Part shown: positions 5,900 to 6,140 of the stretch, piece by piece
How positions within the stretch are numbered: the first letter of the stretch is position 1
Layout of the letters: every line of letters begins with the position of its first letter
IMG/VR virus record: IMGVR_UViG_2711768074_000026
Source: a virus
Lineage: Duplodnaviria; Heunggongvirae; Uroviricota; Caudoviricetes
Reading direction: 5' to 3' (one strand)
DNA length: 9,469 bases
Position numbers and translations under genes: made by a program
The notes under the pieces: model-generated
Databases searched by the model: none
The model's input: the letters and a program-made list of their open reading frames with translations, nothing else
What the model was told of the DNA's origin: nothing

Positions 5900-6140
5900 T
5901 GATCTAGAATCATCTAGTAACCAGTTAACTACTATTATCTTCAAAGTGATTATTACTATCTTTCTAGAATCAGTTAGTAACTAGTATTAAATCCCTTTCG
6001 AGAAAATCCTTTCAGAAGTGATTCTCGATGCCACGCAGTGGCGTCGCAGACGTTTGAGAGTGAGCGAAGCGAGCGAGCAAACTAGTTAATTCCTTCTAAG
6101 ACCATCTAGTATCATCTAGTTTAAATTAGTTGTTACTAGA
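5900..6140. repeat. CTAG-rich palindromic repeat cluster (TCTAGA/ACTAGT/ATCTAGT units)
   Basis: tctagaatca at 5903-5912 and 5963-5972; related 25-mers 5903-5927 and 5963-5987; catctagt at 6103-6110 and 6113-6120; ttactagaag 6133-6142; eight CTAG within about 240 bp. Confidence 0.6.

Follow-up and report, generated by a model that had tools for sequence, protein, structure and literature searches.

In a 9,469-nt stretch of tailed-phage DNA (IMG/VR record IMGVR_UViG_2711768074_000026, Caudoviricetes; hereafter the window), eight CTAG tetramers (at 5904, 5914, 5964, 5981, 6082, 6106, 6116 and 6136) are crowded into about 240 bp. This cluster is best described as a pair of separately inherited hairpin-forming blocks, the right one of which forms one specificity cassette with a neighbouring array of iterons and with a 320-amino-acid (aa) protein, p320. 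The reading we favour, though only tentatively, is that the cluster is a by-product of the repeats and hairpins that make up a structured leader or non-coding RNA read rightward, in which CTAG would have been enriched through the mirroring of stems and through 10-bp duplications. The window is a decayed copy of a ~37-41-kb Escherichia coli prophage inserted in hicB, an intact copy of which lies at 2360900-2402400 of NZ_CP044443.1 with a large serine recombinase at its left end. The cluster is located in a 1.7-kb non-coding region (5676-7380) between a leftward operon and a rightward p59-p320 operon. In the intact prophage the leftward operon comprises p159, p110, Rha, the large terminase (gpA type), portal, capsid, tail, J-like tip and lysis genes, after which comes a short right arm.

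A sequence-only reading of the window had judged eight CTAG in some 240 bp to be a non-random density, and shuffling bears this out. Neither the whole window nor the 1.7-kb intergenic region alone gave more than six CTAG per 240 bp in 2000 dinucleotide-preserving shuffles each, and when 5880-6150 alone was shuffled 5000 times, the count averaged 1.9 and never exceeded 7. Within 5880-6150 CTAG is the most over-represented tetramer (eight observed, 0.41 expected from the rest of the window). When the two duplicated units described below are taken out, the six CTAG left in 240 bp are equalled in 14 of 2000 shuffles. The premise of that reading, that CTAG is rare in genomes of this kind, is true of the host, whose adjacent chromosome has 0-0.12 CTAG per kb, but fails for the prophage, which has 1.5 per kb when intact (the Krischvirus phage Phi1 has 1.8); the window as a whole holds 22 against 25.5 expected. 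Counted genome-wide the element is thus not depleted, yet the local enrichment is real: at 34 CTAG per kb, with 8 of the 22 tetramers of the window, the cluster is a local feature of DNA that is not CTAG-poor. All eight tetramers are flanked by A or T (WCTAGW: TCTAGA twice, ACTAGT twice, TCTAGT three times and ACTAGA once). The palindromic hexamers on which the proposal of dimeric operators was built make up only four of the eight, and they are no commoner than W flanks in AT-rich DNA predict.

The organisation into repeated units, also proposed from the letters alone, stands with one correction: tctagaatca (5903 and 5963, 60 bp apart) and actagt (5980 and 6081) each occur twice as described, and catctagt occurs three times (5911, 6103 and 6113) rather than twice. 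Along the cluster the tetramers are spaced by 10, 50, 17, 101, 24, 10 and 20 bp and fall into two blocks, 5896-5990 and 6080-6145, with a GC-rich hairpin island between them; the two blocks are inherited independently among relatives. A longer repeat of 11-12 nt, (A/T)TCATCTAGTA(A/T), is present in four direct and two inverted copies, two more degenerate ones included. The 11-mer CATCTAGTAAC, with up to two mismatches allowed, has four copies in the window and within the prophage (41 kb scanned) is confined to this intergenic region. In the right block, YTAR tetramers stand at 6096, 6106, 6116, 6126 and 6136 in exact 10-bp phase, and an imperfect palindrome of 18+18 bp occupies 6105-6140. Tandem 10-bp duplications supply two of the eight CTAG, and each is polymorphic among relatives: that of AATCATCTAG in the left block is missing from E. 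coli HeN100 and from relative L008, and that of ACCATCTAGT in the right block from L014, L018, L027 and L031. The cluster is overlapped by no open reading frame (ORF) longer than 33 aa and by no conserved one, and a tRNA search of the region found none.

Part or all of the cluster was sought in 5426 complete E. coli genomes. It is partly present in 52 of them (~1%), at 80% or more of the cluster in 26, and is always chromosomal and never annotated; about 30 IMG/VR contigs also carry the locus. Lysogens with the intact allele include E. coli 39EVA, BS74R-D and ETEC1703. Neither p320 nor p159 links the prophage to any isolated phage in the collection, and no relative was found among one-genome-per-species contigs, so that no other species representative there carries the locus. 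A literature search on the prophage and its protein accessions found nothing. Comparison with the relatives places mosaic breakpoints at about 5886, 5964, 6021 and 6504-6523, and the segment 6021-6504 behaves as a cassette with at least four forms, named here after their iterons: type A, GGGGCAA (nine copies, this window); type B, GTGTAGG; type C, CGGGGA; and type D, TGTACAT. The features to the right of the blocks are as follows.

6320-6523, plus strand: allele-specific part of the 6021-6504 cassette, nine iterons (TTTCAGGGGCAAAAAT), with GGGGCAA at 6329, 6342, 6363, 6384, 6397, 6427, 6449, 6490 and 6512.
6522-6580, no strand: least stable duplex of the intergenic region (by 40-mers), 80-82% AT, adjoining the last iteron on the right; candidate DNA-unwinding element.
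7381-8343, plus strand: 320-aa protein with an N-terminal domain, a coiled coil and an acidic tail, a layout common to types A-D.

The iterons belong to a 21-nt family with spacings of 21, 22, 34, 43 and 63 bp. Across about 30 distinct loci (L002-L039) the iteron type and the N-terminal ~244 aa of the ~320-aa protein encoded downstream change together without exception, and this co-variation survives exchange of the DNA between the two, the protein gene lying 900 bp to the right of the iterons. The right CTAG block is part of the type A cassette and is always inherited together with type A iterons and type A protein. Rha, p159, p110 and p59, on the other hand, assort independently of the iteron alleles and of both blocks, and the suggestion that the Rha protein acts at the cluster finds no footing here. 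Homology is detectable among the ~320-aa proteins of types B, C and D and is only marginal for that of type A. Pfam and PHROGs scans of p320 alleles A-D, p59, p113, p159 and p110 gave coiled-coil noise only, and a PDB sequence search with p59 gave nothing; p320 shows no likeness to any known Rep family, and a single-sequence structure model of it (pLDDT, the predicted local distance difference test, 44) was unusable. From their arrangement the iterons likely form a replication origin or a master control site, with p320 as the cognate partner. We read them so, and not as a packaging site, because an AT-rich minimum lies beside them and because the small terminase gene is at the far end of the prophage. 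The 320-aa protein would then be a putative iteron-binding initiator or regulator of no known family.

Directly upstream of the iteron array we propose a non-coding unit of ~370 nt on the plus strand, from about 5810 to 6197. In order it would comprise the cassette, two 5' mini-hairpins, hairpin I (the left block), two further mini-hairpins, hairpin II (the right block) and a GC hairpin with a T-tract.

5761-5835, plus strand: conserved promoter-like cassette, TTGAT-N9-ATCAA and then TAGAAT/TATAAT, kept across alleles A-D; putative start of the rightward non-coding unit.
5845-5873, plus strand: two adjacent GC mini-hairpins with GAA triloops, gcaaccGAAggttgc and atcccGAAgggat (z -4.85).
5896-5990, plus strand: left CTAG block, with unit a at 5903-5925 and unit b at 5963-5985; CTAG at 5904, 5914, 5964 and 5981, TTAG at 5974.
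5938-6003, plus strand: hairpin I, in which AAAGUGAUU pairs with AAUCCCUUU and unit b is enclosed.
6030-6052, plus strand: GC hairpins with GCA triloops, gccacGCAgtggc and cgtcGCAgacg; allele B has ACGCC-GTA-GGCGT, with a compensatory pair CG/UA.
6058-6167, plus strand: hairpin II, a ~110-nt imperfect inverted repeat with outer stem GAGCGAAGCG/CGCUUCGC, middle stem CUAGUUAAUU/AAUUGGUUAG and the palindrome 6105-6140 as its apex.
6101-6120, plus strand: tandem 10-bp duplication ACCATCTAGT / ATCATCTAGT, one copy of which is absent from some relatives.
6168-6197, plus strand: hairpin gggcTACgccc, then a stretch rich in T (T5 at 6190-6194), where the unit may have its 3' end.

We read 5810-6197 as a structured plus-strand unit because in every allele the cassette stands upstream of it and a GC hairpin with a T-tract stands at its right end. 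The order of cassette, hairpins, hairpin with T-tract and iterons is common to every allele. Folded from the cassette to the T-tract, the whole unit has plus-strand z-scores of -5.6, -6.0, -3.95 and -4.2 in alleles A, B, C and D, respectively, and minus-strand scores of -3.6, -3.0, -2.7 and -2.8.

Hairpin II, which would be the allele-specific part of the unit and is linked to the iteron and protein allele, holds the whole right CTAG block (6082, 6106, 6116 and 6136; core 6082-6139) together with TTAG at 6126 and 6150 and CTAA at 6096. As plus-strand RNA it folds at -33.5 kcal/mol (z -3.2, with none of 200 shuffles as good), against -28.0 kcal/mol (z -2.6) for the minus strand. All 11 of the distinct type A and type B variants fold into a single extended hairpin that is 3.2-11.1 kcal/mol more stable on the plus strand than on the minus strand, the stems having 3-5 G-U pairs as opposed to 0-1 A-C oppositions. 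In allele B the outer and middle stems are the same and the apex is an unrelated sequence, CCUGCUUGCAGG. Two of the CTAG positions read CTAT and TTAG in type B, and an unrelated apex of 10 nt stands in place of the 29 nt that bear the other two. The differences between A and B, and an A/G variant within allele A (in the segment GGTTAG/GGTTGG), turn G-U into G-C or A-U pairs and leave the pairing unbroken.

The left block is built from units a and b, of 23 nt each and 87% identical, each with two CTAG or with one CTAG and one TTAG; AAAGTGAT motifs at 5896 and 5943 are interleaved with them. Unit a is an insertion found in only some relatives, irrespective of iteron type. Unit b is kept in alleles A and B, and the homologous units of types C and D read CTTG, CATG or TTTG. 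In the commoner form of the locus, without unit a, hairpin I is an extended hairpin of ~80 nt with a z-score of -3.98 on the plus strand (0 of 200 shuffles) and -0.94 on the minus strand; in the window the second AAAGUGAUU takes the 5' arm.

Around and between the blocks, GC-rich triloop hairpins are concentrated in 5740-6178, with seven there (loops GAA, GAA, GCA, GCA, TTC, TAC and AAA) against two in the other 9 kb. Position and loop type of these small hairpins are kept and the stems changed (GCCAC-GCA-GTGGC versus ACGCC-GTA-GGCGT; GGGC/GCCC versus CGGC/GCCG). In alleles C and D the place of the 5' mini-hairpins is taken by other hairpins, GACGCTC-CCT-GAGCGTC and GC-GAA-GC, and every allele has a GC hairpin with a T-tract at the position of 6168-6197, but with a stem of its own. 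The unit is framed by a direct repeat of 20 bp, CAGTCGGGC-NNN-GCCCTCCT, with copies at 5735 and 6163.

The abundance of CTAG in such a structure would have a simple origin. CTAG is doubled in stems because CUAG is self-complementary: a CUAG in the 5' arm needs a CUAG in the 3' arm, or a UUAG paired through G-U, and the tetramers at 6082/6150, 6106/6136, 6116/6126 and 5964/5974 are mirrored in this way. Stem symmetry and the two 10-bp duplications account for the larger part of the CTAG excess. That the hairpins are biased to the plus strand in every allele points to a single-stranded structured element over dimer operators, and the unit would act as a plus-strand single-stranded structure, most likely RNA, in the form of a leader or a non-coding RNA. 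Transcription would run rightward, towards the iterons and the p59-p320 operon, and the unit probably helps to control the firing of the origin or the expression of that operon. For genome scans the case carries a caution, since stem symmetry necessarily doubles a self-complementary tetramer and unit duplication multiplies it, and clusters of rare words need not be protein sites.

Several observations weigh against this reading. At the left end a consensus scan found no sigma-70 site (at least 9 of 12 matches) in 5761-5810, and at the right end a terminator scan did not flag 6168-6197, where the T-tract begins 10-11 nt after a stem of only 4 bp. Over the full 406 nt of the window's own version the two strands fold alike (z -4.14 and -4.10); the unit a insert leaves part of the left block unstructured (z -0.4), and some hairpin I pairs are broken in L003, L006 and L027. 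Covariation is thin: of 75 pairs, RNAalifold gives 2 as compensatory, and about 5 show a one-sided G-U switch, with only 2-4 independent haplotypes. The Rfam 15 covariance models gave no match in 5676-7380 at E <= 1, C4 included. Moreover, G-T wobble stabilises single-stranded DNA too, so that RNA and single-stranded DNA are indistinguishable on this evidence, and a long inverted repeat with phased 10-bp units could equally fit a protein-binding site in duplex DNA.

The last point leads to a different explanation, possible but in our judgement somewhat less likely, in which an oligomerising protein that binds or bends DNA would recognise the 11-12-mers in the duplex and so organise the origin and promoter region; the allele-A 320-aa protein, a small protein of the p59/p196 type and a host factor such as IHF would be candidates for the binder. 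Binders of the Arc/MetJ/ParR and Cox/Apl/Xis types typically use phased arrays of such units. Both blocks contain the 12-mer, which is also found, as ATCATCTAGTAT, at the unit b position of the B-type relatives L006 and L021, and the five YTAR tetramers exactly 10 bp apart and the 18+18-bp palindrome are what an array of this kind would contain. Changes in unit copy number are exact 10-bp steps that keep the helical phase, and the right block always accompanies type A iterons and protein. This linkage is, however, explained by the 180 bp that separate the right block from the iterons, which its sequence does not resemble, and the blocks, as seen above, show no association with Rha, p159, p110 or p59. 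No further copy of the motif occurs in the remaining 40 kb of the prophage, leaving no regulon of sites. Positions homologous to CTAG in the other alleles read CTAT, TTAG, CTTG, CATG or CCAG, so the cores are mutated in the homologous units of B, C and D; the CTAG columns are no better conserved than their surroundings (11 of 32 versus 83 of 239 variable, a comparison in which power was low and indels predominated). A deletion of 1 bp makes the last spacing 9 bp in most type A relatives, and the plus-strand folding bias would not be expected of a duplex site. The expectation that syntenic relatives would keep the units holds only in part, type B relatives having 3-4 CTAG at this place and types C and D one. 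Phased repeats do allow for a protein-binding array, and to that extent the original idea of operators survives; the plus-strand-biased hairpins speak against dimeric ones.

Known operators compare with the cluster as follows. The phased operator and centromere arrays of P22 Arc, R1 ParR-parC, P2 Cox and the 186 Apl boxes resemble it in having units of 10-11 bp on one helix face, direct as well as inverted, with copy number changing by whole units. They differ in that here no ribbon-helix-helix, Cox or ParR-type gene co-varies or is identifiable nearby and in that the motif occurs in one place only. In the TrpR operator, CTAG pairs stand 8 bp apart, centre to centre, within GNACTAGTNC-type palindromes. 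The cluster has the same ACTAGT cores, and ACTAGTTAA (6081) and TAACTAGTA (5978) are identical to halves of the trp operator; unlike there, the CTAG spacings are never 8 bp and the outer G/C positions are unmatched at 5978 and 6079. Compared by eye, sites for TrpR, IHF, CRP/FNR and DeoR and dif/Xer sites gave only partial matches at wrong spacings and were rejected, as was an attP-like arm-site architecture, the prophage using a serine recombinase with attP split at hicB.

It is also conceivable, although we find it doubtful, that the cluster has no specific function and is an AT-rich spacer prone to slippage and duplication in a fast-recombining mosaic, in an element which, unlike its host, has not been purged of CTAG. 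Such a spacer would readily show the 10-bp copy-number polymorphisms of both blocks, the lack of CTAG at homologous positions of other alleles and the absence of any detected excess of conservation, and the prophage as a whole is indeed not CTAG-depleted. Further, the segment homologous to 5731-5961, which includes the cassette, the mini-hairpins and unit a, has been lost from the L018/L031 contig, an otherwise full-length-looking prophage, and in E. coli HeN100 an IS5-family element, ISKpn26, sits inside the cluster (L052 35473-36672), at the TTAG of unit b and with a TTAG target duplication; a YTAR-rich cluster is a natural insertion target for this family. Chance accumulation sits poorly with the rarity, noted above, of six CTAG even after the duplicated units are removed, with z-scores of -4 to -6 that recur in four alleles of different sequence, with stem changes that keep the pairing, and with an architecture that is the same in every allele.

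If the structured leader that we favour were instead read as DNA, its hairpins could be single-stranded elements of a replication origin, that is, priming or ssi-type signals or extruded hairpins of which the CTAG blocks would be AT-rich arms; the inverted repeat ssiA/ssiB that adjoins the RSF1010 oriV iterons would be the analogue. The iterons, their cognate protein and the AT-rich minimum make a plausible origin 180-400 bp away, and with no recognisable replication genes the prophage must recruit host functions. C-GNA-G triloops (GAA, GCA and GTA) predominate among the small hairpins of 5740-6178 and include the mini-hairpins GCGAAGC and GCGTAGC. Loops of this type are unusually stable in DNA, as in d(GCGAAGC) mini-hairpins. 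We nonetheless think it improbable that the cluster works in this way. In a DNA fold the hairpin of the right block reaches a weak -4.7 kcal/mol (z -1.7), and the left block shows no structure (z 0.04); no DnaA box was found in the region; and the least stable segment, 6522-6580, is on the opposite side of the iterons, a position that also led us to reject the CTAG blocks as the DNA-unwinding element. Iteron origins nevertheless offer the closest parallels for the locus. Like the lambda ori with its O protein, the RSF1010 oriV with its GC-rich and AT-rich segments and its ssiA/ssiB inverted repeat, and the ori of Staphylococcus aureus pathogenicity islands (SaPI) with its allele-specific Rep, the locus has direct repeats, here nine at multiples of about 21-22 bp. 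An AT-rich minimum adjoins them, the protein encoded nearby changes its N-terminal domain along with the repeats (four alleles), and hairpin or inverted-repeat DNA lies beside the iterons. Unlike in those systems, the 320-aa protein fits no known initiator family, DnaA boxes were not detected, and the CTAG blocks lie 180-400 bp from the iterons, the lowest duplex stability being elsewhere.

A role as nuclease target or decoy (for a homing endonuclease, or in restriction or anti-restriction), or as a cos or pac site, is far less probable still. The CTAG hexamers do include XbaI and SpeI sites, the GC-rich core between the repeats is superficially cos-like, and an endonuclease gene, truncated and running off the left end of the window, is present at 68-898. 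Nothing, however, ties the cluster to that endonuclease or to restriction: the gene lies 5 kb from the cluster in the window and ~29 kb away, beside the lysis genes, in the intact prophage; the blocks vary among relatives that have the same endonuclease region; the sites are lost or replaced in syntenic relatives; and the sole nuclease-like footprint is the IS5-family insertion with its TTAG duplication. Nor do the terminase genes adjoin the cluster, and cos and pac were rejected on their positions. In L052, where the cluster is at about 35400-36830, the large terminase lies ~4 kb to its left, beyond Rha, and the small terminase is at the far right end. Taken together, the operator, nuclease and decoy interpretation with which the cluster was first presented is at most partly supported.

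As for the terminase genes themselves, the gpA-type large subunit is encoded at L052 29113-31017 on the minus strand, with no small-subunit gene beside it. The small-subunit gene (phrog_57; L052 43208-43765, minus strand) lies ~12 kb away at the right prophage end near attR and has its own upstream intergenic region.

Among structured RNAs, the unit that we favour recalls the regulatory RNAs beside origin and immunity regions, namely the CI RNA of P4, the c4 RNA of P1/P7 and RNA II of ColE1. As with these, a structured non-coding unit stands between divergent operons, beside specificity determinants, and contains an allele-specific hairpin; in contrast to them, the unit has no sequence or covariance-model match (Rfam; C4), and no complementary target for it was identified. 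A bolder proposal, which we regard as improbable, is that the ~370-nt unit is a new allele-specific phage regulatory RNA which, with the iterons and the 320-aa protein, would provide RNA-plus-protein control of origin firing or immunity; a cassette in common with Krischvirus phages would drive it, and the prophage would thereby sense or exploit superinfection by T4-type phages. The proposal fits because a T4-type late-promoter motif stands before accessory genes, because a piece of a Krischvirus gene has been acquired (both described below) and because no replication or repressor genes are recognisable in the prophage. The cluster in itself is a modest find: a cis-element, not described before, that consists of repeats and hairpins and lies in the control region of a likewise uncharacterised prophage. 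The compact and swappable specificity cassette made up of hairpin II, the iterons and the N-terminal domain of p320 offers a tractable route to a new family of initiators or regulators, and possibly to a new regulatory RNA, and the surrounding cassette and the links to T4-type phages are more promising leads than the cluster.

The first of these links is the upstream cassette, 45-75 nt of which are 81-93% identical to Krischvirus phages. Phi1 (NC_009821.1) has two tandem copies, at 98918-98941 and 99067-99090, upstream of the DprA-like ORF164, and each copy is followed by GNA-triloop hairpins, those seen being ACTCC-GTA-GGAGT and CGC-GAA-GCG. The window's copy of the cassette (AAATTATGATCAAAAC) is nearer to the Krischvirus version than are the copies of other prophage relatives (AAATCATCATCAAAAC). 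The arrangement resembles the promoter-early stem-loop (PeSL) cassettes of T4-type phages, which were defined in Krischvirus phages (Arbiol et al. 2010, PMC2839356; Comeau et al. 2014, PMC4122927): GC stem-loops (5845-5873) accompany a short, conserved regulatory element at the borders of shuffled modules, the breakpoints fall in or beside conserved pieces, and 45-75 nt of the cassette are common to the prophage and to Krischvirus phages. PeSLs are recognised by a near-consensus sigma-70 promoter, TTGACA-N17-TATAAT (PMC4122927). The prophage cassette lacks this, its best reading by eye being TGATCA-17-TAGAAT, and it differs further in that the prophage is a temperate, siphovirus-type element and in that the cassette occurs only twice, in tandem, in the 50 kb of Phi1 examined, for which reason a dispersed promoter family in Phi1 was rejected.

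The second link is the T4 late-promoter octamer TATAAATA, of which the 41.5-kb prophage has eight copies against 2.6 expected. Its density in the prophage, 0.19 per kb, equals that in Krischvirus Phi1 (0.16 per kb) and is about six times that of the host flanks. The window sites are 5689-5696 and 7373-7380 on the minus strand and 6814-6821 and 7014-7021 on the plus strand; those in L052 are at 3568, 34239, 35204, 37509, 37709 and 44023. Outside an ISApl1-mcr-1 insertion, six of seven copies lie 35-70 bp upstream of small non-structural genes and in the same orientation as these; the genes encode Rha, p159, p59 (preceded by two copies) and proteins of 139 aa and 101 aa. In 30 of 30 relatives the p159 copy is unchanged, whereas its flanks vary.

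The third is a piece of 312 bp (966-1277) that is 96-98% identical to inh, the prohead protease inhibitor gene of RB49-like Krischvirus phages, and corresponds to about aa 83-186 of the product. It lies within a prophage ORF of 147-156 aa on the minus strand (934-1404), just downstream of the endolysin gene. This indicates a recent exchange with a virulent T4-type phage, and the ORF that contains it may have an anti-phage or decoy function. Cassette, inh fragment and TATAAATA motifs tie a temperate phage to T4-type phages and are of interest independently of the cluster.

Words of the cluster also turn up in other viral contigs. Exact matches to CATCTAGTNNCATCTAGT beyond the prophage family were in unrelated CTAG-rich, repeat-rich contigs with no proteins in common and were rejected as chance or convergent. 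TAGTATCATCTAGTATCATCTAGTAT, the same 10-mer in tandem, occurs in the unrelated environmental viral contigs L056, L061, L062 and L064 (46-101 kb), in CTAG-rich repeat regions with 5-6 per kb, and these contigs have no proteins in common with the prophage.

The decay of the window's copy can be followed in its sequence. At a deletion junction at ~4123-4142 the J-like tail tip (from residue ~1004) is fused to Rha (residue ~176), and ~25 kb of structural genes present in intact copies have been lost. The ends of the window, 1-115 and 9362-9469, match the ends of IS1414 (IS256 family, the astA carrier), and the remnant would thus be bracketed by IS1414 in its source genome.

In the rightward operon, the best sigma-70 match of the region lies at 6715-6743 (TTGACA-17-TATACT, 11 of 12 positions), its -35 element inside the palindrome TTGACAACTGTCAA; the two are likely the promoter and operator of p59-p320. 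The 59-aa p59 (7108-7260) matches, at 35% identity (E 1.6e-4), the C-terminal end region of a protein of 196 aa (L052 32320-32910), the gene of which lies in reverse orientation between Rha and the large terminase in intact prophages, and the part common to both may be a DNA-binding module. Finally, the proteins that end at 8343 and 8711 and their homologues in L002, L015 and L017 have the C-termini ...AA, ...YAYAA, ...DFAA and ...RLVA, which resemble degradation tails of the ssrA type recognised by ClpXP.

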